Notes under the pieces: generated by a model
Databases searched by the model: none
What the model saw: the letters and a program-made list of their open reading frames with translations, nothing else
What the model was told of the DNA's origin: nothing
Position numbers and translations under genes: made by a program
Shown: piece by piece, positions 2,761-52,513 of the stretch
Layout: each line of letters begins with the position of its first letter
How positions within the stretch are numbered: the first letter of the stretch is position 1
Assembly: GCA_000091205.1 (NCBI GenBank)
Contig: AP006487.2
DNA length: 64,000 bases
Origin: Cyanidioschyzon merolae
Lineage: Eukaryota
Direction: 5' to 3' (one strand)

Positions 2761-4789
2761 AGCTACTTTGTGGAATCCTTGGAAAATTAGTATTATCGAC
2801 TGTGTGGGATCCCGAGAATGAGGATCCCTCACTGCTGCTTGAAACGAGGTCATGCGGCGGCACGAAACCGCCAGTGGTCAAGAGCTTGGATAAGCGTTGC
2901 GCGCTGCGTAGACGCCTCCGCACGAGCCACGACGCTCCTAGCCGCACCAGAGCGATGACGAGGACGCCTTGCATCGGTAATGAATAGTTCTGCTGCAGTT
3001 ACATCTTGCCGTGTACAGAGACTCAGCGGTTACGTCACTTGCGCTGGAGAGCACTGCTGGCGCTCAGATACTCGCGTTTTAGTCTTAATTATCCCGCAGC
3101 GTTTTTTGCTAATCCCACGTCAACACGAGAGAGAACGAACTCGAACTCGCTAACTCGGACGAACACACGAATGTTTGCGTTTTCCGAATGTCATGAATAC
3201 TAGCCTTAGAGGGTTTTTGTGCGACTGCGTCCTTTTCTTCTCTCTCATCTCCGGCTCTCAGTACGTCGCCCTCACCTATCTCCCCAGTTCCCTTGCCAGC
3301 AGTCGAAGGATACTGGAGAGAGCATTCATGTCCCGATTTCGCAGCTTCCGGTTGCTGTCGACACGTTTCGTGCGCATACGATTGTTGCGATGAATTCCTC
3401 GCTTACCTTTTTCATCTTGTTTGCGTACGCTTTCGGTGCGCATTTCGCACTTGCATCAACTTGCTCTGGGAAGGTTCCCGTAAATGTCCAGGACATATCC
3501 TTTTTCACGTGCCGCCATGTGGGGCGCGAACACTCGCTTCGTGGCCGTTTAAGTGCTCTTGATTGGAACTGAAGTCTTGCGTGGATGGCGTCTGCCGTTT
3601 TCGGACTCGGCACAGTAGCCTGTGATCGCACGCCTCAGCGGGGCGATTCACGAGGCGAGTACGCTGTCCGCTGCATGCGCTGGCGCATCTTGTTCCATTC
3701 GGCAGAGGATTTGTGGTACGTAATGTTGTGTATGATGAAACAAGCAGCGGCGGGTAAATCCAGACCGGAGAACCAGTCGTGTGGTATCGATTTGCATGCG
3801 CTCCTTTTGTACAGCTCGGTGACGCACCCGCCAATGACTTCGATCACAGCCATGACACAAGCCCGAGTCGTTGACCGTTTTCTATGCAAACACAAGAGAC
3901 GCTTGCTTCTCGGCGCATGTCCCATGAAAGGCGTCATTCTGCTGCGGAATCCGCTTCCGTCCATGAACTAACACAAAGGAGGATTTTTCTTTCAAACGAA
4001 ATCTATTTTTTGAGGTGACGATTTCAGTTAAATTTTGTGATGCGCTTTTAACAAAGTAGTCGAAGGGCGACATCAAGTCACGTTTTCCATGTTCCACGCA
4101 GCGATTAGCATCCCTGCGCCCACGAGTTGCCTCGAAACAAAGAGATTGACAACATGATTCATGGATGATTTCAGCACGTTACTTGACCGGTAAAATCAAA
4201 ATTGGAGGCTTGCAAGTATAGAATGAATAACAATATTGCTTATTTTACAAACCTTGGCTTGACGGCAACGAGAATCGTCCTGATTCCGATGACGTTACGA
4301 ATTCCAGCGGCAGACTCGAATGAGCCATGCTGCAGTGGAGACTAGGAGTCCTCACTCTACTTGAGGATTTGAAATCTCTTATTGATGCGCTTCGAATGCC
4401 AAACCAGTACATGTAAAAAAGTTCGGAAAAAGTCGCAAGGCAGAAACAGAACGTTCCGCCCAGCACTCCGTGCTAGTCAGACACCGGTTTATCGAGCAAC
4501 TGTACATCCCGCGCCACGGCGAGGCGCGCGTTTCGCTGCACAGAGCGAAATCTGCGATGCGCGGCAGATCGCTGCGGCGGTTATACTCGCGCGCTAATAC
4601 TCGCACTCTTGTACTCGCCCAAGTACACTTCTGCAGTCATACTTGCGTCGTTACAGTTGTGCAGCGTCATTTGCTGCAAAACGGAGGCGATCCTTATTCG
4701 ACGGACTCTGTTGAAGCAACCGCTTGAGGTGTTATTTATTTACTGCAAAACGCGAACACTGTAAGGCTCCAATACTACGAAAGCCATAA

Positions 4790-9352: not shown

Positions 9353-10313
9353 ATGGCAGCGTTCCTGGAACTCAGCGATCAGTATGACGTCCACGGACGT
9401 CGGTTTGTTTTTTCCCAGTCGATGCGGCTTCCTTCGGACGAGGCGGTCGGTGCGTTTATGGGTATCCTCGGAGATGGCGTCTGTGCTATGTACGAACGAA
9501 CTTTTAGAGAACGAGCATGTCATCAACTGTTCGAGCTGCAGTGGATTCTTTTGGCGGCCTCAGTTTCGCTCATAGACAAGACACATACAAGAGCAGCAAC
9601 GAATTCGTCGAATCACTGAAGACGGTTCTCTGACGTCTTCTGACAACCCTCTGTTGGACAACGTGACATTTCACGATTCTTCTTGCGTTCGAGTCTCTGC
9701 AGATTCTGTTGGAATAGAGCCGCTTTTCATTCCTCCGTACGCGCCGTAGTTTAACGCCATCGAAGAAGTCTTTCTTATCATCGAACGTGGTGATCGCTCC
9801 ACTGGGCGAACCGCTGAAGCGTTCAGCACACCGGGACGCCCGGGTACGCCTCGTCGCTCTTCCGCAAGTCCACCTCTGTCCGGAGACGTCCTTACCTCAA
9901 GGCGTAAAAAAGTGCGTCCATTTAAAGAAATAAAAAATCTGACGGCTGAGCTGGGGTGTACACTTCAGAGGGTCGAGACGGAGATAAGCCAGCGGAGCGC
10001 TTCGGCAACAGATATGCACGGCGAGCTGACAGAGCACCGGGTAGCATAGAGGGCACGGGTTCGATCACTCCTTGCATGGCTGCGTTCCGTCAGAGGCGAT
10101 AAACGCATGGGGTTCGTGAACCGAGAATGCAACGTCGCCAACAATATGAGGCGATGTGTGGCGCTGAAGACGAGACCCGAGGAGATGAAGCGATCCAGCT
10201 TCCTGGGGTGTCCTCGAAGCCTCCAGGTATCCAAGGAGAGGATGAAACGCATGGCAGGGGGCCGGTCGAAAAAGGCTGTGGTGCGTCTACCAGTTGGTAT
10301 TCATTCACCCTAG
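9353..10313 (+). pseudogene. third, strongly decayed TnpB/Fanzor-like nuclease relic (copy C)
   Basis: The ORF at 9353 reads RRFVFSQS...AFMGILGDGVCAMYERTFRE. This parallels copy A, which reads RRTHFQSF...GFVMGIDPGSTRIS/AMVAMPLYDENGIRF. The ORF at 9384 has INCSSCSGFF, a CxxC(G) zinc-knuckle remnant. The ORF at 10107 has NRECNVANNMRR, comparable to DRDxNAAxNIlrr RuvC-III. The pieces are in different frames and widely spaced, so this is heavy decay or a mosaic. Confidence 0.3.
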
Positions 10314-15190: not shown

Positions 15191-16522
15191 AGAGAGGCAG
15201 TTGTTACCGCGTGCGCGCGCGCGCGGATGCTTCCACAGCGTCGAAGATAGAGGATTTTTAAATTGACATTGGCCAGCGTTTCCAGAGACTGTGCCCCATT
15301 TTTTTCTTTTCTTTCTCTGTCAGCGCGCAGTGAGGCATCCAACAAACCCCCTACTTCCATATTCCATAACATATACTTCTTCTCGAGTATACAGGTCGTT
15401 TCATACATACAATCGTGATGGTAGTGCCTGCAGAATGAACCCGCCATAGCGCCGGTAGCGCCGGTGCAGATGCATCACCTACATACAGAACGGCTTTTCC
15501 ATACCACTGAGGCCGACGGTAATAGCGGCACAACGCGCTTCGCAGCAGGCACTCATGGTGAGCGCGACATGCACCAGGTCGGTGAAAAAACTACCATCAA
15601 CTCAGAGGAATCACGTACTGGGGATGCGTTGCCTAGGCGCGAAACTACAGGGACCGTTGCCTCTTTCTGGGTCTCTGGTGGCAATGGCGCATCCGTGGGA
15701 GACCTGATCAGACTCATGGGATTCGCGCCATAAAAAATGCATAGATCGAGGCAGATTCCCGCCACGGGGCTTGTCTATTTACCGCACGTATCATCGAAGA
15801 AGCACGTTGCCGACGGACTTATGATAGCGCATCACAAGTCGCGCAAGATTGCTTTTCGGGGCCGTATCGCTACGCTGTCGGGCGTATTCAGCAGATCCCA
15901 CCAGTTCTGGAAGCACGGTCAGTCGTTTGCTGTACCGTACTGCGCCCGGCGAAAAGACGCGCGCGGGTGTACCCGCTTGCCATGCACAACGCGAGATCGA
16001 GATATCTAACCAGAACCAGACGGATGTGCAAAAACAGCGGGACATCGGGCAAAAGTCTTCCACTGTTCCGCGAGAGCTCCCGTCTTTGTCAGCTTTTGTT
16101 TGCAAGTCTCTGGGGGTTCAGCGACCCTGCGAGACCCGAACCTTCTGAAGCCTCCACGTGAAGCCTGGTCCGATACTTGTTGCAATCACGTGCATCATCT
16201 CGACACTCACGATCAATAAGCTCAATAGTCTGCGTCGGGGTCACAGAACTCGTCGACTCTACATAAGAAAACGGAAACGCTGGCATGCAGTCCGTTTCAA
16301 CACTCCCGCGACCGATGCAGCCCCACAGGGCGGCTCGTCTGCAACGTCGCCCGCTCCACTGACGACGAGCTCGACGTCAGCCACTTGAGTTCAGGTGTTG
16401 GTACTTGGTGGCCTCTGCGGCCGTTTATGCCTCAACGGAAGCCAAAAGAAACTTGATGACACTGAGTACAGCTTCTTGAATAGGGGTTTTGCTGTTGACT
16501 GTTTGCCTCGCGTCCGAGCTCG

Positions 16523-22656: not shown

Positions 22657-24089
22657 ATGGATGCAAATGAGGAGCCGGTGGCGGTATCGCTCGAGTTGGT
22701 AGCGACTTCGGCAGAGATGTCGCTACGAGGGCGAGCGGCACTCCAGATGGTCCAAGCTCATCGTGATATGCTGGACCTCGAACCGGACGGGCGCCATATC
22801 CAAAGGATGGTTGAAACGAGATGCCTGCCTTCATTGCATCTTTCGCTACTTTATGTTCCTGAACAGGGCTCTCCAGAGAAAAACCTGCTTGCCTCCTTGT
22901 ATCCGTGCATCCAGGCCCCTGAGAAAAACCCATTCAATGCGGCACCGGTATGCCGGATTACGGCGCAGGCAACCATCGTAGATATTTGTGTTATGTACTG
23001 CATCGTGTCTGGAGTGAGCTACGGCTGGTCTCTGCGAGCAGGCATGGGACATGCGAGCATCATCTCGAAGAGCATTGGCGGAGCTCGCTCGACGATACGC
23101 ATCCGCTGGTAGAAAGTATAGAAGAGTCAATAGGGACGACAGAGAACGACAGAGTATCAAACCGCATGCAATTCGTGCAATCTAAGCCCAAGTCGAGCAG
23201 AAGGACTCATTTTCAATCGTTCAAGATAGATGATATGAAAGGATTTGTGATGGGTATCGATCCGGGGTCGACAAGAATATCGCGATGGTCGCCATGCCTC
23301 TGTATGATGAGAACGGCATCAGATTTCTGAAAGGCAAGCAGATGACACTGCTCATTTTGTGCAGGGCGTAATATCTTCGCGAGTCATAACGAACAGACGA
23401 AAGAAGCCATACCAACAAATGGAATGATAGCGTCAGAACTGCTTTTGTACGCGCTGAGGAATGTGATGAGCAGAGAAGCATGCTTCGTGCGTCTCAGATA
23501 GAGAGTACACAGATGCGTAACTGGCTCCCGCAGGCATCTTTAGCTGGAGTCCATGAGATGGCGCTGAAATCGCAAACGATTCCTGTTGTACAAGCGCAAG
23601 AAGCACGCATTCTCTAGGTCCTTCAGTGAGTTGGAACAGCGAGTGAAAGACAATGCGCGTCATTCGGTAATAGAGTATGAAGTTGGACATTCCAGCATGC
23701 GCACTGGCTGCACATCTATTCAATCGACAAGAGCGTTCACCAAGAGCAGAAACCTATGCGGGACGATTCCCACTGGAGGCGTTCAGGACAACGCGCATGC
23801 GCATCATGAGTACGACTGCACACTGAAACAGATCGAGAAGAAAAGCGTGGAACAGAGCGCGATACACAATATCATGCAAGGCGAGCTGATGAAATGCCAG
23901 ACACCGAGACATCCTCAGGTGAGAGGCGTACTATTGTGTGATGCCACCAGCGATCATCCATACGAGTACTTTCTGCATCGAGACTTGAATGCCTCAATCA
24001 ACAATCGGGAATGTGTGTGTTGCTGCCAGAGCGTCTATCAACTTTGTTTCCTGCATATTTTCCACGAAATTGATTCGTGCTCGGTGTAG
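22657..24089 (+). pseudogene. decayed TnpB/Fanzor-like RuvC nuclease gene (copy A), frameshifted
   Basis: Frame 0 at 23250-23290 reads KGFVMGIDPGSTRIS, the RuvC-I GIDxG with catalytic Asp. One base later, frame +2 continues AMVAMPLYDENGIRFLKGKQMTLL, comparable to TnpB ...AIVTDGVRFKHEQ... Further downstream fragments are SSRVITNRRKKPYQQ and MRNWLPQASLAGVHEMALKS. The ORF at 23586 reads HAFSRSFSELEQRV...IEYEVGHSS..TGCTS, comparable to WGEF..QLEYKAxWxG...TSQxC, then ...HRDLNASINN, comparable to DRDxNAAxNI RuvC-III. Order and spacing (RuvC-I to RuvC-III about 245 aa) fit TnpB/Fanzor. There are at least 2 frameshifts and several stops. Confidence 0.55.
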
Positions 24090-34581: not shown

Positions 34582-36297
34582 AGAAGCGATGTCAACCGTC
34601 TCTTACCAGTAAGAGTCGGACAAAGCACTCAGCACAAAACGAAGCAGAACGAAACGGTGGCACTTGCGCTGCAGCGTGCCAGAGTGCGTGTCCAGCTGTC
34701 AGACACCGTCGTCACTTACGCGTCCGCTCTGAAAGCTGGACACGAACTTGCCCAAGGGCCTTGGCGAGAACGCGTCTTCGTTCCAAAAGCCTACTTTCGT
34801 ATGCCCAGTTTCCGAGGCTCCTTCACTATAAGAGAGCAAAGTCACAACCAAAGTCGTTGATTTGTTGCAACTTTCCCGCAACGTACCAAACTCGCGACTC
34901 TGCGTCTTGGTTGCGCTTTCACCAACTCGATTCCAGTAGCTGGAGGCTAGTGTCCACAAAAAGCACAAGTCCGACGTGAAACTCGTTCTACGCAGGTAGA
35001 GATGCTCCCAGAGGTCCGCACCGTCGTCGAGTCACCCCGAGGGCGTTGTCGGGTTTCGCGAACGAAGGAATATGTCGCAGTAGCAACGAGTTCCTTTCGA
35101 ATCCGAAACCTACGCCTCGTCAGTGTGTTTGGCCCGTCGATATCAAGTATGCGTTTCCCCGTATATGATATGACGTAACGGCACAATTGTCTGTTACTCG
35201 AAGAGCGAGCGACGCACGGACCGATGCGCGGGAAAAACCGACGGAACGGATGCGTGCACCGCCGTGACGCAGCGTCGATTTCTCCTTCGACGACACGCAT
35301 TCGATTTTGTGACACTTTAATGTAACGCTCGCGGGAGCGCGCGCGGCCACCCCGCGGGGATTTCGATTACATAGAGGTTATAGAGTTTCATGTCAATTGT
35401 GTTCCACTGCCAGGTGCAAGTACGCAACTGGTGTTTCGCGGTTCATAGAAGATGTATTCGGAGTGCGTTCAGTTCAAGAAATAAATACGCTAGAGGCAAT
35501 GGTTTCGACATGGGGTTCGTGGATCCCAGAGGCCCCGTATTGCAGGTTTCGACAAAAAAAGTGAAAAAATTCCTCTTCTTACGGAGCGTCGAGCAAAGAA
35601 GAGCGATTGACGAAGAAGCAGAAGGGGCGAACTGGGCGAGAAGAGGTATTTTCCGGACGGTGCGAAAATGAGACTCATGTCATACATAGGACGCTAGTCT
35701 TACGAATACTTGCATCGGTGAGTTCAACCAGAGGCAATGAACGCAATGAGTTCGTGAACCGGGAATCTCACACCGTCATTAAAATCAGAAAATGTGCGGT
35801 GCTGAACATGAGATTCGAGGAGCTGACGCGATCGAAGTAACTTGGGCAGCCTCTGGTACTCGACGTGTCCAGAAATATTCTGAAACCGATAAAAGTCGGC
35901 CGGTCAACGAAGGCGGGGAGGCGTATGCGCGTGCGTATACATACATAGCCTCCGTGGTCGTAGAACGTCTATTGGTTTCACGAAACATCGTATAAATGGA
36001 GCAGGTGCACTTGGCTAACTCTCGCGTCTACCCTAAAGATTTAGGCTGTTTCCAATGTCATCGACACCAGGCTTTGTGGAGGTTTTCTGAGACTGCTCCC
36101 TTTTTCTTGGACGTTGATACAGTTTTTTATACGCTGCTCCGTCCTTTCATCCAGTTTCCCTCCTGATAGTCGAAGGCTGTCAACAGCTGCGTTCGAGTTC
36201 GGACGTGAAGTTTCGGGCACTTATCTATCTATGCCGTTCATGCAGAGGCCGAAGTCGTCATCTACATTTCGCTCGCCATTTTGATCTTCTTTGTATG

Positions 36298-36324
36298 CAG
36301 CAGCAGCAGCAGCAGCAGCAGCAG
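36298..36324. repeat. (CAG)9 microsatellite
   Basis: Direct read: cagcagcagcagcagcagcagcagcag. It sits in an ORF-poor block. Confidence 0.9.
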
Positions 36325-38338
36325 TGCACCGTCTCCAGCGGCGACACTTGGGTGCCGTCGGGTGCTTCTATAGGCGCACCACCATCCAGCCTCCTCCAGA
36401 CGCTGCCTCGTGTCGCGTCAAACTTGCTTCATCGCAAGGTGTACGCCCTTGAAGGACACAGGGGCGCTCCACTCGATGCCCCCCTCCGTTTCGACGCCTG
36501 GTGTCGTACACTGTGGTCGCGGCCTTCCTCTTGGCGATTCGTTCTGCGACTGTTCTGTCTGCTGGACACGCAAGAACGTACTGTTGCATCCAATAAGATA
36601 TTTTGTGGAAAGCGATCTTGTCCTTGATAAAACACGAACCAGAAGGAGAATTCAGACTGGACAACACGTCGAGGAATTCCGACCCGGCTACGCTTGCACC
36701 ATTGCGAGCGAGAGATACAAAAAAACTCAGACCGGAGTCCAAGCGCCTGTCCCGTGCAAACAGAAGCGACGTCAGCCACTGAGCACAGATCCCCAAAGAG
36801 GTATCATGCAGATTTCGAATCCAGATTCGTCGATGGCCACGACGAGAGGAGCAATCATCTATCAAACCGAAATTATTACAGGACATGGTATGTTCAGTGA
36901 TCTTTTCGCATGAGCTTGCGAAAAATTCGCCAACGGTCAACGTCGAGATTTTCTCCTCGTCAGTTCAGCAGCGCGAATCGCTGCGTACGATGGTTGCCTT
37001 TAAACATAAAGATCGAGAACGTGAAGAATATGTGATTTGAACCTGCTACACACAAGCAAAGAAGGATCGTGGATGCTTGCACGTCTGCATTGCATACGGA
37101 TATCGATTCTTTCTTGCGTTCCCATGTTCGACTGCGTCGCGAATCCTCTTCATTCCAGTGGTGTCACGCCTTGCAGCGACAATGCTTCCAAGGCGCTACA
37201 TCGAAAAAAAATAACGACCGAGAATCCTGAATCGACGTATGAATCCGCATCCCCTTATGGTTGCTCTTCTAGTATCGAGTCTGTACATCTCAAAAACATG
37301 CTCGGAAAATATCGACATGCCGGCACTGGCCAAGCAGTTCAGTATTCCATTCTAGTGTGACATGGGCGTAGCGTTCGAACGTTTCCGCATTGATCGACGG
37401 AAATGACATACTCAGTAGAGATCCCGGCTGGCAGGGTGATTTTCCGGGATTCGCGCCCATATTCCACCATTCCTCGCGCAAACCCCAGGTTCCGACATCC
37501 TCCTCCTAAACGCCCGTCGGAGACAATAGCCGTTTCGTAAGTTCCGGCCTGCACTGAGCCTGCCAAGAGCGTTTGCAATAATCCCTATGGCACCGGTGCG
37601 TACCTGGCACGACGAGAGCGCGGCTTTGGGAAACCACTGAAGGCGTCGGCTTGAGGCATGGTTCACCCGACACGAGGTCAGATCTCATAGACATTCCGAA
37701 GTCCAGCGGACTTGCTATGCAGGCGTGCCTTAAAGGCAAGACCCGTTCGAGTTACATGGCTTACAGGAGGAATCCTGGGGGCTCGTCTCCCCTTCACAAC
37801 CCTCTGAGGAAAGCGTCGTCGTTTCGCAAAATAGCGGTTTTGCTCCGAACCCGCGCGTGAGAAGGTGCACGAATCGCTGAACTCGTGTGCTCTTCCGTTT
37901 CGTGCCAAATTTCGCCTAAAAGGTACGGAGCACACGAAAGCGCACGCTCTTGGTGAACGTACCACCCGGCTCGATGGCCGACCCGGGGGATTCAGGTCAA
38001 AATGATCAGACTTGCAACGTAAAAAATCCGTTCAAGCTGATTCCACCTCAAGACGACTCCACTCTAAATCATCCATACCATAGCATAGAATTTGCTCTCG
38101 AGCCGGCAACCAACGGCATCCAAATGTTTTTCTGAGGAAGCACCACGACACAGCAAACCGGGAAGCGGAACACGCGCGGCAACGTCGGCGCCACCGGACA
38201 CACCATCATCTGCGCCACTACATAACTGCATATTTGTGCTGCTACTTGTTCAGTTCAAGCTGGTGCATTTTTTTGAAAAAGTGATCCTAGTCGACGTGAA
38301 CAAATACATATTTCCTTCCAACATACTACGAACAAGGT

Positions 38339-44157: not shown

Positions 44158-44307
44158 GCGTGGTATCCAGGGTTCGTCCCTGGATGCTCTGTACGATAGG
44201 GAAAAGAGCGGAGCTTGTCTGCGTGAGTTCACGATTGAACAAGCGCAGAACGAGCGATCGGCGAAAGCGTCTTTCAGGCCAAGCGTAAAGCAGCACAGCC
44301 TCCACCT

Positions 44308-45558
44308 GTGATTGATCAGCGCGGAACACCGACCCGTGCGCTCTGTTCGTGCATTCCGATTCTCTCTGGGAAGTTTCTCTCTCAGATGCACCGACTCGAT
44401 ATTCCAAGGGCCGGCACAAGGGCTGGTGGATGCATACATAGGTACGGGATGCTCGGTCTGTTTTCCCAAGCGACTTCAGCGACGCTTTCTCGCGGGAATT
44501 CGATACGTTACTGGCATCAAAATGGTTCATGGTAGGTCAGGACTCGGATTCAGAGTACTGCGGTTATCATGAGACCATGGAGACATACAGGGCTCCTCTC
44601 TGCTTTTTCACTGACATGCAGCATGCTCGAATCGCGCGTTCATCAAGTTTCCGATATTTCTGTTTCAGGTTGCTTTGTCGACACATCCATTCGCGCTGCG
44701 GAATGGATGAGGGGAACGGGAACGAAGATGCCCCTTGGCGATTTCCTCACAAGCTCCGGCAGCAAGCCCCCTGAATCTATCGCCTCAAACAATCGACTCG
44801 GTCTGAACGGCAAATCCCCCGCTCTTGGTGATCATCGACGGAACAACATTGGACGGCAGCATGAAACCTCCCACGGGAGATGATGCAGGACGCGTTCTTT
44901 CGTTCGGTGTTTGCCAGGAAGAAGACCACGGGATCGGAATGGATTCCAGTCAGCGATCGCTTCGAGTGGAGCGTGCTTCACTGCGTTGCCCGAACGAAGC
45001 GTGTTCAGATCGATATTCGTCGAATTGTTCTCCCGTTTTGGATGTTCGTTTCGGTACTTGTTTTTCCATGGTAAACATCGCGCTCCATAAACACTCTATC
45101 GAATGGAATAGCCTGTTCTTGCACGTCCAATAGACAGCGTGCTCGAGCAGGAAATCGCAAACGAGAAGCCTGTCATCGTTGCATGTTGCAGCGGGCGCGA
45201 AAACGAGCAAGCACATCGCGGGAAGCCTTCTGTACCAGTCGAGGGCATGTACCGAACGATGAAATGAGGTTTCACGCGCCACAGCGTTGTCGTCTTCCTC
45301 CTCAGCGGAGGACTAGGACTAGTTGGAGAAAGTTTGATATACTTATGAGAACACGCAACTACCGTGGATTGTCAGCGCTACGAAGCGCGCACCGATGCTT
45401 TATACAAAGCAGATGAAAATGGCAAGCAACGCTTACATCTCAACGAAAAGCTGCGCATCCAGTGTGTCGATAGCAGCTGTGCGTGTCGACATTGCGACTG
45501 GAACACCGCAATCAACATCCTTCGACTCCTGACAACAGAGCTGGAGGGGCAGGAATGA
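44308..45558 (+). pseudogene. decayed TnpB/Fanzor-like RuvC nuclease gene (copy B), multiple frameshifts
   Basis: The ORF at 44529 reads RCGMDEGNGNEDAPWRFPHKLRQQ. This is RuvC-I GxDxG followed by (P/I)RFxxKxxQ, compare copy A IRFLKGKQ and TnpB VRFKHEQ. The ORF at 44569 reads GDHRRNNIGRQHETSH, compare TnpB ARIHKRIVNKRQDFLHK. The ORF at 44825 reads MVIIDGTTLDGSMK, a RuvC-II region, compare EIIGTEHLKPDNM. The ORF at 45364 reads TTVDCQRYEARTDALYKADENGKQ...IQCVDSSCACRHCDWNTAINILRLL. This is LxYKAxxxGK plus zinc finger plus DxNxAxNI RuvC-III. Coordinates here are accurate only to +/-1 (see the track/sequence discrepancy in the summary). Confidence 0.55.
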
Positions 45559-45760
45559 CCGGCGTCTTTCATGCTGCAGAGAAGAGATAGAGGAAACGGA
45601 GCTAATCATACAAAACCCCGCAACAGGCTGGTGATGACGACAAAGTATACTGACCCAAACTTGAGCATGATCATCCGAATGAGAGCACCCGTCCCTTTCT
45701 AGTCTAACATGGGCGTCACGTGATGCACGCCGTATAAACGCCGGGAACTGGACCAGAGCG

Positions 45761-45862
45761 TCACCATCACCATCACTATCATCATCACGATCATTATCAT
45801 CATCACCATCACCGTCACTATCAGCATTGTCATCACCATCATCACTATCATTATCACCATCC
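45761..45862. repeat. imperfect (CATCAC/CATTAT)n hexamer-like low-complexity tract
   Basis: It reads tcaccatcaccatcactatcatcatcacgatcattatcatcatcaccatcaccgtcactatcagcattgtcatcaccatcatcactatcattatcaccatcc. On the minus strand it encodes a poly-Asp/Gly run inside a doubtful 210-aa ORF (45433..46065). It lies immediately 3' of Fanzor-like copy B. Confidence 0.8.
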
Positions 45863-46471
45863 TGGATTCGGATCGCGAGTGTACGCTTTACAGGGGCTGT
45901 CTCCGTGTATACCCTCGGATGAAGCAATCCAAAACCGCCTGACGTGTCGCACACTATATCCAGGGAACCGGAGTATCGCCTTCTTGGGTACGGCGTGCGA
46001 GCGCAGACTTGACACCAGATGCCTCCGCAATGAACATCAGGTAGAACAACCACAGCAGCAGACATAGCGTCCTACATACTGACCTCTATGTAACGGTAAA
46101 GCGGTACGCAGTCTGTTCTCTGATGATGTGCCAGGCGATGCTCCAGCGTCGCAGCATCGATGCACTGTGCTGCATCCTGCCCGCTGCTGGTCAGCTGCTG
46201 CTCTTGCAACTGCCACTGTTCCGAAGAGCAGACACGTGCTTCTCGTTTGCTGTTACTTTGCAAACAAAACTGCGCTCGTGTTCAAAACGACTCCATGAAA
46301 CAGCCCGTTGACGTGAACGGTGAGCGATCACGACGGACGCGCTGTAGCCCGCACAGCGACTCTGGACTAGCACCCATGCAATGATGACCATGATACATTA
46401 ATCTTTAAGACCTATGCACGTACAAAAGCATACACAAATCCAGACACCCCGCATTCTCGTTCCCGATAGCT

Positions 46472-46474
<3 letters not shown>

Positions 46475-46511
<37 letters not shown>

Positions 46512-48748: not shown

Positions 48749-51700
48749 TAGTTACACGCCCGCAATTCAGAATACACGGAGTCAACAGATCGGCTCCACC
48801 CAAGAAAACTGTGCAAAAGATACAAAACTCTTGTCCAGGAAGCGAGTACGCCCCGCGAAAGCTCCCGGAACAAAAAAGCGCTTCAGAGGGCACGGAGCTA
48901 CCGCGCACCCTAGTCTGTGCGGTAGCAAACTTTGCGTCGTGTACGCTCTATGCTCGCCAGTCCGCTGCCTGAATAGACACAAGACAACACACCAGAGCAG
49001 TGCGTGCGGTACACGCGCACCAAAAAAAAACGACGAATGACGTTACACTCAAAGCTCGTGGAGTCTCTGCCAGAAGCGCTCCTAACGAGCGCTGCCGGAC
49101 TCGCGTGCCCGTTGCACGTCACCACCCTCAGATGCATTATTGTACATGATTGTACTAAATGGAACCGTTTCTAAGAATCTCCTGGTGGCGGCAAGCGCAC
49201 TGCGCCTCTCGTGATCGGGTTCGTGACGCGCGCACGCAGCATCTCGCCACCGGAGTCGGCAGGCGTCGTTGACGGACAGCGCGCGTGTCACGCAAGCGCC
49301 TGGCGTCGCTCCGGCACGCAGCGCGGCTGAACGGAGGCACGCAGGATGTCGCCACTGGCGTCGCTGCGGCACGCGATGCCCATGAGGCGCAGCCAGGTCG
49401 CAGTGCGCGCTAGCTGACGGGCTCAATAGGACTCTTGCACGCGCATGCAAGCGGAACCGGCGCTATGGGCTGTGCACGAGCAAGGCAGATCACGGTCGTG
49501 ACATGTGTACAGGAGCAGGATTCGAGCTTCTGCATCGGGCCTGGACATTGCCTGTGCAAACGCGAACGGAAAAGATGTCGACGCTGTAGGCGGCGTTTCG
49601 TGTGCCAGCTGCCGACGACGCATGGCGCACGGTAATGCGCAGGCATGTCGGGAAAAACTGGAACAGGCCCTGTAACTCGGGTATACATTCTAAAGTTTGG
49701 GTATCTTCCTGCGATTGTCAATTGCAGGTGTTGCAGGATTTTCTGTCACTGATTCTTTACCTCTCTCTTGTCTCCGCCCGTATATACGACAGTCGATACT
49801 GACCAGCCAGCTTCGATGTCAGGATTCGAAGGGTGTTGACGGTGGCACGCAAGTGCCGAGTTCACGGCGTCCGGCTGTTGCCCAGGCATTTCATGCACTA
49901 GTGAAAGTTACGATCTAGGCTTCGGTTGCCGAATTCACCTTCCATGTATACAGGCCTGGTGCGTTCTTTTGGAGCGATGACGTACCCGGTTGTGATCGGG
50001 TGTTCAGTGATGTCTAACGCGCCTCTTCCTCCGAGTGCTGCCCTGTGGCGCGCAAACGCTTGCTTTATTGCCTGATACTCGTACTTGGCGGGTACGAAAG
50101 GCCCCTTTGGATGCCGTCCTCAGTTTCCTCGCCAGCCGCGGCACCCTGCGATGACGGCATTCTTGTGCGCGATTCCATCGGCGCGTACGATGCCCGTTGC
50201 ACACACCAAAAGCGGCTGCAGCCCACTTGGTGGAGGATTTGTGAAACGTGGTGTTTTCCATGATGAAACAAGTGCCGGACGGCGAAGGCTCGTCGGAGAA
50301 CAAATCGAGAGCTCATGATCCGTGTACACTACCCTGGTGCAAATTGGTGAAGAACGATGCACTGGAAGCGATCGCTGCGATGACTCATATCCGAGTTTCA
50401 GACATTTTCGCATGCAAACCGGAGGAGTGCGAGCCTCAGGGAACATGTCACATGACGCACCCCGCACTGGGTTCGAATCCCGTTTTATCGATGTTCACAC
50501 CGAGAGGACGTGTCTCCTTTACAAACGAGATCAACGATTTGACGCGACAGGTCCAGTGAACCTTTGGGATGCGCTGGTGAACAAAGCGTCAAGAGACGAC
50601 ATCGATGATCTTGCTGTTTTACTCCTGCCACGCAAATCGCTTCGCCCACGATCAGCCTTGAAACAGAGAGGTCGATAACGTGAAGTATACGTGATTTGAA
50701 CATTCTGCACATGAAGAGAGGAGAGGAGTCGATGCTTGTACGTACGCTTTGAATGATCATATTTGTTATGTTGTATGCCCGTATTCAAGGGAGTCATGAA
50801 TCATGGCAATTCCGATGACGCTAAGAATTCCAGTGTTCAAGCGTCGGAGGAGCCTTTCCAAAACGAAGACCGAGACACCCGAACCTGCGTTTGAGTCCAA
50901 AAAAACCCGGACTGCTGCACTGGTACTGTCGAAGATGTACTTGTACAAAAGAATCAAAAGCCAAGAACACACCATGCAGTTCAGCGTTCTATTCTAAACT
51001 GAGACAAGCGTAGATTCGATTTGTGCGAGATAATCCTTTCGTTCTGGATAGAATGCATTCCTGCAGGAAGACCGCGGAAAGCACCACGATTCAGTCAATC
51101 TGGACACCATGCTCTCCAGCTGACTTTTGATTTACGGTCCTAGTCGTTTCAAACACCAGGTCGGGACGACTCCGGGCAGCTCGATACCCCCGTGAAAGCG
51201 CAAGCGTAGCGGCCAGAGAACGCTGGAGCGCAGGCGTGTTCTGACCCAGGGCGGGCAGCAGCGTCTCGAGACGGTGCAGAGCGGCGAGCAGCGCAGGCGC
51301 TCGACGACCCCAACAAGGAGATAGCGTCGCCGTTCCGTTTCTGTGCGATGTCTGCGGTAGCGCTATAGGATTCATTGCCGGCGCCCGCGCGACAGAATGC
51401 ACGGAGCGTGTTCCCAAAAGTAAAGCAGAGTTCGGAACCGGTGAAACTCGGATGTATGGTGCGGAATAATGGGTGCTCTCCCGAACGGAAGCGACACTCT
51501 GGCAGTCGGGTGTCTCTTTGTTCGTGAGAACGATACGACAACTATACGTGCCTCGTGAAACAAAAAATATTTCACGAACTTGTCGGGTACATGAATATGC
51601 CCACGCGCAGACGCGTCCCAGCATTGTTTTACCGACCGACGGCTATCGGCTTCAGTTTCTAATTGAACACTTCAACTCTGGGAAGCAGCCCCACAAAGTT

Positions 51701-52513
51701 GGATCGCAACAGCTTCTCGGGCATCGTCTTCCGCACCGCACATCATCTGATACGGAGAGCGTTGTTAAAGTCCCGGTTACCGAATTCCATTCGTCAATTG
51801 CCTCTGGTTGAACGCACCAATGCAAGGATTCCTACAATTCGAACCAACTGAACAACTACAGACTCTTCATCGCTCCCTCAGGGAAACACAGTTTCTCGCC
51901 TATCTCCCATGTTCTTCACCTGCTTTTCCTCGCTCGATAGTAGCCGAAACGAGGATTCTCTCGTTCTTTTCCAGCAGCCAGCGATGCAGGCCTTCCAGAA
52001 TCCTCGACTTGCAAGTCCAAGCCTTTCCCTTTGATTTTTGTTTCTTCAATATGAACGCAATTCGAACGCGTCAGCTATAAAGGCGCCAAACAGCATGTGC
52101 GCACACGCTCCCGGGGGCGAAGCTCTGGTGCGATGAAAGCCCTGCGCAAAACTCGCGGATCGGTGCGGCGCATCGCCCTGCAGGCGCGATTGCTGTCGCT
52201 TTCGGCAGGCTCGTCACACGATAGGACGTATGAAACGACCAGAATATCCGAGATGAAGTATAGGTAATGCAACTTGGGAATAGGGGGTTGATGGATACCT
52301 CACCGCGCACTGAAACAAACACACATAAAAAAGTAAGAGAAGAAAAATGCGCATAATCGGAGAACGCTGGCCTAGGGAAACGTTTTGTGCATGAAAAAAA
52401 TCGCCCTGCAGGTCCATGACATCAATCCTTCCTTTTTATAAACCTTTAGGTATATAGCGGCCACAGGGTTCGCAAACGCTCCAGCGGCGCGCCAATTCAA
52501 ATCCGATCGTGTA

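Follow-up and report, generated by a model that had tools for sequence, protein, structure and literature searches.

The sequence at 44303-45715 (+ strand; 1,413 bp), hereafter copy B, is most probably (about 80%) a fossilized insertion of a cut-and-paste DNA transposon, non-autonomous and ~1.4 kb long, in which the remnant of a mariner-type transposase is followed by the tail of a Fanzor1 protein. It is ordinary transposon debris and does not contain a whole TnpB/Fanzor gene. The limits of the element are given by its terminal inverted repeats (TIRs) and by its alignment to a consensus of the family, with which it is 72.7% identical. The window, that is the whole 64-kb stretch of DNA that was analyzed, belongs to chromosome 5 of Cyanidioschyzon merolae 10D.

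A preliminary description of this DNA had read copy B as a decayed OMEGA-type gene. That reading holds for the 3' part, which is Fanzor/TnpB-derived, but the gene is not whole, and only the last third of Fanzor1 is represented. The motif strings quoted in its favor are all present in the DNA, but they occupy three frames and cannot be read as one sequence. The domain map obtained by joining motifs from different frames of one decayed copy was plausible yet mostly wrong, and the right map came from a consensus of diverged copies.

Family copies and terminal inverted repeats

Searching the 64-kb window with nhmmer and blastn and a model of the family recovered exactly four copies. Copies A (36014-37374), C (49619-51014) and D (3148-4499), all on the - strand, are colinear paralogues of copy B that have their 5' and 3' limits in common with it. 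Pairwise identities among the four are 57-63%, which bears out the earlier view that these are old paralogues of low identity. At least nine further independent copies were found in hot-spring metagenome contigs, all of them ~1.35-1.4 kb long and none longer. From 13 copies (the four in the window and nine from the metagenomes) we built a family consensus without reference to any protein family. Because this family-blind consensus exceeds the Pfam gathering scores for both TNB and DDE_3, the colinearity of the copies lies far above chance. The scores also climb as copies are added, from 52 bits with four copies to 76 bits with 13 for a Fanzor1 HMM, and from 18.8 to 40.2 to 43.4 bits for DDE_3, as expected if the family descends from coding sequences that were once functional. 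The decay of copy B has gone too far for such tests on it alone, and only those based on the consensus worked: a Pfam scan of its own eight ORF pieces (E <= 10) returned nothing relevant. Likewise, a search for homologous proteins with the tail of a four-copy consensus gave nothing at E <= 0.01, and the 13-copy consensus gave 11 matches.

The left TIR of copy B (44303-44327, + strand; CACCTGTGATTGATCAGCGCGGAAC, consensus CACCCGTGTCAGATTAAAATGGAAC) is decayed; the right TIR lies at 45691-45715 (+ strand; GTCCCTTTCTAGTCTAACATGGGCG, consensus GTTCCATTTTATTCTAACATGGGTG). The repeats are ~25-28 bp long, and the two consensus ends agree at 24 of 28 positions once the 3' end is reverse-complemented, so that the consensus carries the TIRs that characterize the Tc1/mariner/IS630 superfamily. 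They emerged only when 5' ends were aligned with reverse-complemented 3' ends; with short words, BLAST retrieved no more than an 8-mer from single copies and from an eight-copy consensus. In single copies the TIRs are badly decayed, and the case for them is made mainly by the consensus and by comparison across copies, for example between the 5' end of copy A and the reverse-complemented 3' end of copy B (~21 of 25 positions match). A TA dinucleotide precedes the left TIR in about five of 10 copies and none clearly follows the right TIR, in flanks that are too decayed to judge; TA may nonetheless have been the target site of the family. Farther downstream, 45 nt outside the element, lies the hexamer tract that had been described there (TCACCA, 13.5 copies, 45761-45861), which is absent from the other copies.

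Transposase remnant and Fanzor1 tail

The 5' part of copy B (44386-45096, + strand) is the remnant of a Tc1/mariner/IS630-type transposase that extends from the N-terminus to just beyond the second catalytic aspartate, and transposase-derived DNA makes up the first ~790 nt of the element. The assignment comes from the consensus, whose translation matches Pfam DDE_3 (PF13358) over model positions 3-117 of 146 with 43.4 bits (E 4.1e-11; gathering score 28.6). In the consensus, the first two DDE motifs share one frame at normal spacing. Motif 1 (44828-44854, + strand) reads VVIDETAFD in the consensus and VIIDGTTLD in copy B; motif 2 (45059-45091, + strand) reads CFIMDNIAFHK in the consensus and CFSMVNIALHK in copy B, where the aspartate has become a valine. 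Upstream of DDE_3, at the expected position, are weak matches below the gathering scores to HTH_Tnp_Tc3_2 (E 0.0017-0.0075) and HTH_33 (E 0.025-0.065). The third acidic DDE residue is absent; its place is beyond the deletion junction. In copy B this part is disabled by stops at 44533 and 44804 and by frameshifts at 44717 (+1), 44906-07 (+2) and 45036 (+1). Two candidate motifs were dropped along the way: VIIDG as RuvC-I, when more copies revealed the DDE_3 signature VVIDETAFD..GYAPRGSRP, and 'AYSPRESP' as the third DDE motif, since intact Fanzor1 relatives show that this DNA codes for Fanzor ('QRALARAAD..') in another frame.

The 3' part (45097-45665, + strand) corresponds to the C-terminal ~180 amino acids of Fanzor1, as judged from a Fanzor1 HMM, Pfam TNB and homology to the DNA of L027, a related Fanzor1 gene. 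It comprises a helix ('YRxxQRALARAAD'), a strand ('KPVIVGYGTG'), the segments 'GGHxxxPSVPVKG' and 'EHxTT', a CxxC...CxxC zinc ribbon, the RuvC-III motif 'RDxNxAINIL' and a tail, 'ERPxYL'. The HMM, which has 263 positions and was made from 13 published Fanzor1 C-terminal halves, aligns to the 13-copy consensus over positions 113-257 with 76.2 bits (E 3.4e-23), whereas 200 shuffles reached at most 6.2 bits. Pfam TNB (PF07282; Cas12f1-like_TNB) scores 27.2-28 bits on the consensus (gathering score 26.3). Even copy B alone aligns to the Fanzor1 HMM, at 45166-45570 over positions 134-257 of 263 (12.6 bits, i-E 5e-5 among 12 six-frame sequences), and the match therefore extends past the 40-residue C-terminal tail outside which it might have failed. 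That tail, ALYKADENGKQ...CDWNTAINILRLL (45397-45531, ORF 45364-45558), was correctly recognized at the outset as truly Fanzor.

The Fanzor1/TnpB superfamily is defined by the motif D-X(125,275)-[TS][TS]-X-X-[C4 zinc finger]-X(5,50)-RD (Bao & Jurka 2013, PMC3627910). Its central part is found in the consensus as 'EHLTTAKCHRCEG...LCMKCVD', and the zinc ribbon has decayed in copy B to 'EHATTVDCQRYE ... IQCVDSSCAC'. The RuvC-III remnant at 45490-45531 (+ strand; HCDWNTAINILRLL in copy B, NRDLNTAINILRLL in the consensus) retains the 'RD' and the 'NAAxNI' helix, and is the sole match to D.N[AGST]A.N[IVL] in the six-frame translation of the 64-kb window. The Fanzor1-type strand and loop ('VVAYGxG....G..xPVKG'), 'DE..TS' and the C-terminal 'RPxxL' are likewise present in the consensus. 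Lesions in this part of copy B are stops at 45109, 45265, 45346 and 45556, a 27-nt insertion at 45287-45313 and two extra nucleotides at 45587-88. Homology thus indicates that the 3' part of copy B is descended from a Fanzor/TnpB-type gene.

The first catalytic residue of that gene type is missing. In no frame of the consensus did the HMM positions 1-112, which include the RuvC-I aspartate ('GxDPG'), find a match, and the alignment starts at 113/114. L027, which spans HMM positions 7-258 and has RuvC-I ('GLDPG'), is 71% identical to the family in DNA, only from consensus nt 934 (window 45097) onward, and its 'GLDPG' lies upstream of the start of this homology.

Origin, decay and alternative explanations

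We propose that the ancestor of the family was a Tc1/mariner/IS630-type element with ~25-28-bp TIRs that would have carried a transposase gene and, behind it, a captured Fanzor1 gene between one pair of TIRs. An internal deletion from just past the second catalytic aspartate of the transposase to the 'Y..QRAL' helix of Fanzor1 would have removed RuvC-I and joined the two remnants out of frame. Such a derivative would have coded for no working enzyme and could have moved only in trans, by means of a transposase that recognized its TIRs. One old burst of amplification in the Cyanidioschyzon lineage, followed by neutral decay of every copy, would then account for the family as it appears now.

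The same anatomy could have arisen if a fragment of a separate Fanzor1 element had entered, by insertion or recombination, a mariner-type element in which a whole Fanzor gene was never present, and the chimera had then been amplified. Among the loci fetched we did not find a full-length parent with a complete transposase and a complete Fanzor1 gene within these TIRs, and a search for an intact transposase of the family's type found none. Fanzor1 relatives of the tail do occur without an adjoining transposase, and none of the closest intact-looking ones (L027-L030) has a DDE_3 gene beside it. Different element families also lie side by side in the intergenic regions of the window. Against this origin, the Fanzor tail sits inside a matched pair of TIRs and in the same orientation as the transposase, which is the known Mariner-Fanzor1 layout, and one deletion is the simpler route. 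We therefore consider a chimeric origin unlikely, even though the evidence here cannot really separate it from an internal deletion.

The idea that copy B is a once-complete TnpB/Fanzor-like gene, with RuvC-I (GMDEG), RuvC-II (VIIDG..) and zinc finger/RuvC-III in order and damaged by frameshifts only, draws on a tail that is truly Fanzor-like and on the distance from 'WIDEE'/'GMDEG' to the 'VIVGYG' strand (~137 amino acids), which would suit Fanzor1. The Fanzor frame of the consensus is moreover open across this stretch: it runs for 336 codons, ~158 of which are upstream of the junction over transposase-derived DNA. An off-frame open stretch of this length occurs in only 0.4% of windows in the real genes of the 64-kb window, and this counts against our preferred reading, an internally deleted mariner-type element. 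By contrast, the unmatched HMM positions 1-112, and the homology to the RuvC-I-bearing L027 that starts only at nt 934, argue against a complete gene. The same DNA, read in the other frame, gives the significant DDE_3 match, with both aspartate motifs normally spaced and the HTH matches upstream.

The upstream motifs of the preliminary description dissolve on this comparison. GMDEG..WRFPHKLRQQ (44700-44765, in the frame of ORF 44529-44774), taken there for RuvC-I, is an out-of-frame reading of transposase-derived DNA, as is HRRNNIGRQHETSH (HRRNN..; 44833-44874, in the frame of ORF 44569-44883), which had been included in the motif order. VIIDGTTLDGSMK (VIIDGTTLDG; 44828-44866, in the frame of ORF 44825-45133), assigned to RuvC-II, is the first DDE motif of the transposase. 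Since HRRNN.. and VIIDG.. are the same nucleotides in two frames, the supposed motif order counted a single stretch twice. A decayed complete gene is thus largely refuted already, and we hold it to be very improbable.

Every copy of the family carries stops and frameshifts. First, second and third codon positions diverge alike, by 26-28%, whichever region and frame is considered (chi-square p 0.29-0.93). Between strains, copy B shows 12 differences in 1,413 nt compared with 10 in 4,133 nt of flanking coding sequence (Fisher p = 0.005). Because its rate is ~3.5 times that of the flanking genes, and about the same as that of spacers, we regard copy B as a neutral fossil. The one-base discrepancies that had been suspected are not errors of the assembly: the orthologous locus, assembled independently from two metagenomes (L003 and L004), shows no indel anywhere in 44303-45715. 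Introns were rejected as an explanation of the frame changes, given that the lesions differ among paralogues, that there are in-frame stops and that codon periodicity is absent.

It is hardly credible, in view of this decay, that the element or its 3' part still has a function, whether as a gene, a domesticated protein or a conserved regulatory RNA. Two observations lean that way: polyadenylation of the PEPC mRNA takes place 8 nt into the left TIR, and the 3' region of the consensus (224 nt) folds slightly better than shuffled sequences (z = -2.2; three of 200 shuffles do as well). They are set against four stops in the Fanzor part of copy B, stops and frameshifts in its transposase part, evolution faster than the flanking genes at about the spacer rate, and the lack of codon periodicity. 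Nor is the predicted fold better paired than chance, with 68.8% of cells paired across 10 sequences compared with 67.5% in column shuffles.

A related idea is that the deletion derivative retained the Fanzor 3' end for a reason. This end and the adjoining right end would then encode an omega or guide RNA, which we judge improbable. The Fanzor 3' part is retained in every copy found, which is compatible with a guide RNA, as is the slightly better folding of the consensus. In the predicted fold, 21 pairs are changed on both sides compared with 14.2 in column shuffles (four of 500 shuffles reach 21). Rfam gave no match in the whole 64-kb window. If the idea were true, the 1.4-kb family would be a eukaryotic counterpart of the bacterial IS200/605 derivatives that consist of a guide RNA without a nuclease, and would have relied on a full-length Fanzor1 in addition to a transposase, both acting in trans.

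The chance that copy B belongs to the published C. merolae family CMe-1A / TE-N2_CMe is practically nil: organism and age are alike (~80% identity of CMe-1A copies to their consensus and ~73% of copy B to its own) and CMe-1A fragments lie nearby, but membership is refuted at the sequence level by the lack of any nucleotide similarity, the matches of the CMe-1A consensus (3,169 bp) and of the CMe-1 protein (blastn, tblastn) fall at six sites elsewhere in the window and in none of the four copies, the CMe-1 protein and our consensus have only the RD.NAA.NI motif in common, and CMe-1A is reported to have neither TIRs nor a transposase.

Relation to known elements and significance

Capture of Fanzor1 genes has been described for Mariner elements that have TIRs and TA duplications (PMC3627910). 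The architecture of a transposase plus Fanzor1 occurs in PUl-1, PGv-1 and similar elements from oomycetes and viruses, while PUl-4 and SPu-1 are transposase-less (Bao & Jurka 2013, PMC3627910). Like PUl-1 and PGv-1, our family is bounded by TIRs and has a mariner/IS630-type DDE transposase upstream of Fanzor1 on one strand, and the motifs 'vvAyGdw..kGh..gPvKg', 'vDEfrTS..C..C', 'nRDvNAa.Nil' and 'RPaa' of that group are all recognizable in its consensus. Unlike those elements (3.4-3.8 kb), it measures 1.4 kb, both genes are truncated and fused out of frame by what appears to be an internal deletion, RuvC-I and the third DDE residue are lacking, and a red alga is its host. Between its transposase and that of PUl-1 there is no more than a distant similarity (7 bits).

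Fanzor1 has been known in C. merolae since 2013, as the old family CMe-1A / TE-N2_CMe with ~150 and ~70 copies; CMe-1A is 3.2 kb long and encodes a 734-amino-acid Fanzor1 (PMC3627910). The new family resembles it in genome, comparable age and type of Fanzor protein, and fragments of both lie in the same intergenic regions of the window. It differs in its length of 1.4 kb, its TIRs, its DDE_3 remnant and its possession of only the Fanzor tail, and the similarity between the proteins is confined to motifs. With prokaryotic TnpB (IS200/IS605, IS607; OMEGA nucleases) and Cas12f, the family shares the zinc-ribbon/TNB domain and the RuvC-III motif. It lacks, however, the RuvC-I and the helical RuvC-II parts of these proteins, and in place of a Y1 or serine TnpA context and subterminal hairpins it has TIRs and a DDE transposase remnant. 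Its consensus fits the eukaryotic Fanzor1 profile (76 bits) much better than the general TNB model.

In their uniform length, shared ends, coding remnants of a parent, burst-like spread, neutral decay and presumed dependence on a transposase in trans, the copies resemble internal-deletion derivatives of class II elements, and at 1.4 kb they are longer than typical MITEs. One published MITE survey is reported to have detected none in C. merolae (PMC3964958).

The current picture of how Fanzor/TnpB works is unchanged by these results. What they add is a second Fanzor1-related repeat family for C. merolae, distinct in sequence from CMe-1A and of a kind already known. Descriptions of C. merolae usually credit it with very few transposons; this family has at least 13 independent copies, four of them within 64 kb, and many intergenic regions in the window are old DNA-transposon fossils, one of which now provides the PEPC gene with its poly(A) site. 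Our analysis suggests that mariner-type transposons have been vehicles of Fanzor1 in red algae as well.

A family of short elements with inverted ends

Five of the six long ORFs in the window are identical to annotated C. merolae 10D proteins, all encoded on chromosome 5; they include phosphoenolpyruvate carboxylase (PEPC, BAM79319.1; 41338-44157) and RPC2 (BAM79323.1). The window is therefore nuclear red-algal DNA, and we accordingly term TnpB-like sequence in it Fanzor. In a self-search, 44300-45700 (+) proved colinear with three further sites, all on the minus strand, and a DNA profile search recovered exactly four copies of the family: copy D (4499-3148, minus), copy A (37374-36014, minus), copy B (about 44261-45713, plus) and copy C (51014-49619, minus). 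The four start and end at common positions in the repeat unit and are 57–63% identical pairwise, in line with the preliminary description of old paralogues. Scanning metagenomes and looking up ORF fragments yielded additional copies from hot-spring contigs of close Cyanidioschyzon strains: orthologues of copies B (contigs L003 and L004, 99.1% identical), C (L007, 99.4%), D (L005 and L006, 99.2–99.7%) and A (L013-L017, 97–98%), and nine independent insertions (L010, L011a, L011b, L018, L020, L021, L023, L024 and L026). On L011, two independent copies stand head to head with ~50 nt between them (1717-2923, minus; 2974-3535, plus). Every family copy found measures ~1.35–1.4 kb, and none among the window and metagenome copies is longer.

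Aligning 5' ends against the reverse complements of 3' ends revealed terminal inverted repeats (TIRs). The consensus ends, 5'-CACCCGTGTCAGATTAAAATGGAAC...GTTCCATTTTATTCTAACATGGGTG-3', match at 24 of 28 positions, and the 5' end of copy A matches the 3' end of copy B at ~21 of 25. In copy B, the TIRs occupy 44303-44327 and 45691-45715. As to a target-site duplication, about half of the copies have TA before the left TIR, and the right flank gives no information.

Remnants of two genes in the consensus

We derived a majority consensus, from four copies and then from 13, without reference to any protein family. The last 204 codons of the 4-copy consensus match Pfam PF07282 (Cas12f1-like TNB, formerly OrfB_Zn_ribbon) above the gathering score (28 bits, E 2.4e-6), and two coding remnants are evident in the 13-copy consensus. 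One frame of the 5' remnant, '...LFVVIDETAFDSSMIPLMGYAPRGSRPFCLHGKGSWTR.VIAAIASSG....GS.DGSKFLDLFSSLDSPSGTCFIMDNIAFHKSS', matches Pfam DDE_3 (PF13358, IS630/Tc1-mariner type; 43.4 bits, E 4.1e-11), with weak HTH_Tnp_Tc3_2 and HTH_33 matches upstream, their usual place in such transposases. Judged by these sequence matches, the 5' remnant is a transposase. The 3' remnant lies in a different frame and reads 'YRMEQRALARAADSVLAEGIAQKKPVIVGYGTGRGNGGGHREEPSVPVKGMYRAMKQ...VMDIWEHLTTAKCHRCEG...LCMKCVDNSRKQRNRDLNTAINILRLLTTELEGKERPAYL...'. An HMM of 263 positions, built from 13 published Fanzor1 C-terminal halves (Bao & Jurka 2013 supplement), scores 12.6 bits on copy B itself (45166-45570), 52 bits on the 4-copy consensus and 76.2 bits on the 13-copy consensus (E 3.4e-23; model positions 113-257 of 263), against a maximum of 6.2 bits among 200 shuffled controls. 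This increase with a better consensus is as predicted by descent from a working gene, and homology identifies the 3' remnant as the terminal part of a Fanzor1 gene.

A protein search with the consensus returned ORFs of near-intact relatives of the Fanzor part. One of these, P0090, contains RuvC-I ('VKGLDPGRVNLY') followed by '...EYRLGQRALARAADHLVSEGILQKKPVIIGYGTGRGNGGGHKGEPSVPVKAMYRAL', and its contig, L027, aligns to the Fanzor1 HMM over positions 7-258. Similarity between L027 DNA and the family consensus (71% identity) begins at consensus nt 934 and does not extend further 5'; this position corresponds to window 45097, directly 3' of the DDE motif 'MDNIAFHKSS'. The element therefore comprises the remnants of two genes joined there. 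Two-thirds of a mariner-type transposase gene, from its 5' side, are followed out of frame by the last ~180 codons of Fanzor1. The element lacks both the RuvC-I region of Fanzor and the third DDE residue, and HMM positions 1-112 are unmatched in every consensus frame. Between nt 463 and 1470 of the 13-copy consensus (window ~44620-45665), the Fanzor frame is stop-free for 336 codons; ~158 of these precede the junction and overlie transposase-derived DNA, where the transposase frame itself is interrupted in the consensus by two TGA codons. In real genes of the window, off-frame stretches this long without a stop are rare (0.4% of windows).

The closest relatives of the Fanzor part, near-intact in appearance, lie at L027 5001-6120 (also on L028 and L029) and L030 4983-5375. 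The L027 Fanzor1 gene has RuvC-I and one frameshift and adjoins Skp1 and peptidase M16 genes on a eukaryotic contig (GC 53%). On a 33-kb contig (GC 45%), the L030 relative has for a neighbour a protein of 778 aa with weak Prim-Pol matches, possibly viral. Neither locus has a DDE transposase beside the Fanzor1 relative.

These results recast the preliminary description of copy B as a decayed TnpB/Fanzor-like sequence with RuvC-I, RuvC-II and a zinc-finger/RuvC-III tail: the region does not represent a whole TnpB/Fanzor gene in decay. Each quoted peptide string can be located in the copy B translation: GMDEG..WRFPHKLRQQ (44700-44765), HRRNNIGRQHETSH (44833-44874), VIIDGTTLDGSMK (44828-44866) and the C-terminal tail (45397-45531). 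Rather than following a single motif order, they occupy three different frames, and that order counts one stretch twice, HRRNN.. and VIIDG.. being two readings, in different frames, of one nucleotide sequence. Three of the four motifs were misassigned, the RuvC-I region being absent and the 5' remnant a transposase, while the Fanzor origin of the tail holds. With the window translated in all six frames, the RuvC-III-like pattern D.N[AGST]A.N[IVL] matches once, in this tail; the ORF pieces of copy B taken singly have no Pfam match. The earlier observation is partly confirmed and its interpretation partly supported.

Decay and origin of the family

Copy B is 72.7% identical to the consensus. Its transposase part carries stops (44533 and 44804), frameshifts (44717, 44906-07 and 45036) and a change of the second catalytic Asp to Val; its Fanzor part carries stops (45109, 45265, 45346 and 45556), a 27-nt insertion (45287-45313) and a broken zinc-ligand pattern. 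The lesions of the other copies differ from these. Because the element contains no indel between strains, the frame breaks are real and not the one-base assembly errors once suspected. Codon positions 1–3 are all 26–28% diverged from the consensus in both remnants and both frames (p 0.29–0.93), so that all divergence postdates the loss of coding function. In comparisons between strains, 12 differences in 1,413 nt of copy B stand against 10 in 4,133 nt of flanking coding sequence (Fisher p = 0.005), and spacers diverge about as fast as copy B.

Bao & Jurka (2013; PMC3627910), who named Fanzor, list one C. merolae Fanzor1 family, CMe-1A, with a 3,169-bp consensus, ~150 copies at roughly 80% identity to that consensus and a 734-aa protein; it lacks TIRs and is accompanied by a related 635-bp element, TE-N2_CMe. 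They also describe Mariner elements with TIRs and TA duplications that captured Fanzor1 genes, some of which, such as PUl-1 and PGv-1, also encode a transposase. The published CMe-1A consensus and protein match at six other places in the window but leave all four copies of our family unmatched; the CMe-1 protein and the consensus of our family have only the RD.NAA.NI motif in common. CMe-1A fragments (9834-10295, 15350-15519, 35379-35933, 37608-37674 and 51599-52277; 69–87% DNA identity to its consensus) in several cases adjoin present-family copies, so that fossil transposons are clustered within shared intergenic regions. A further decayed Fanzor1 pseudogene of a different lineage lies at 23244-24023 (+); it retains RuvC-I ('FVMGIDPGSTR', ORF 22950-23330) and RuvC-III ('HRDLNASIN', ORF 23586-24089), covers Fanzor1 HMM positions 6-246 and shares 29% identity with the CMe-1 protein across 263 aa (E 4e-16).

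The family has the look of a non-autonomous Mariner-Fanzor1 derivative that arose by internal deletion. The PUl-1 transposase is only a distant relative of its own. The evidence best supports a cut-and-paste element with no enzyme of its own: a mariner-type transposase would have acted in trans on the TIRs, amplification would have come in one old burst, and the element would have been dead ever since. We found no intact transposase of this type and, in the loci examined, no full-length parent, so that a parent with both genes inside one TIR pair is an inference; alternatively, a Fanzor fragment may have recombined into a mariner element. A candidate omega-RNA remnant could lie in the 3' region of the consensus, which folds slightly better than shuffles (z = -2.2); across copies, its pairing is no better than in column shuffles, with double-sided changes slightly in excess. 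The family may already stand in Repbase or Dfam as an unclassified entry.

Flanking features and the PEPC transcript end

An imperfect (TCACCA)n tract (45761-45861) starts 45 nt beyond the right end of copy B; none accompanies the other family copies, and between strains it shows two substitutions and unchanged length. It encodes the Asp/Gly-rich part of a 210-aa ORF (45433-46065, minus) that overlaps the 3' end of copy B and is seemingly not an annotated gene, since the stretch from PEPC to ACAT contains just two protein accessions. A (CA)17 microsatellite (46475-46508) is the sole length polymorphism across 6.6 kb; in L003 and L004, the orthologous metagenome contigs, it is shorter by 14–16 nt.

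On the other side, two polyadenylated PEPC transcript contigs from related strains (L001 and L002) terminate in '...ctccacctgtga' and then a poly(A) stretch (window 44300-44311). The PEPC mRNA is therefore cleaved at ~44310-44311, 8 nt within the left TIR of copy B, and the PEPC poly(A) site is supplied or abutted by this transposon fossil.
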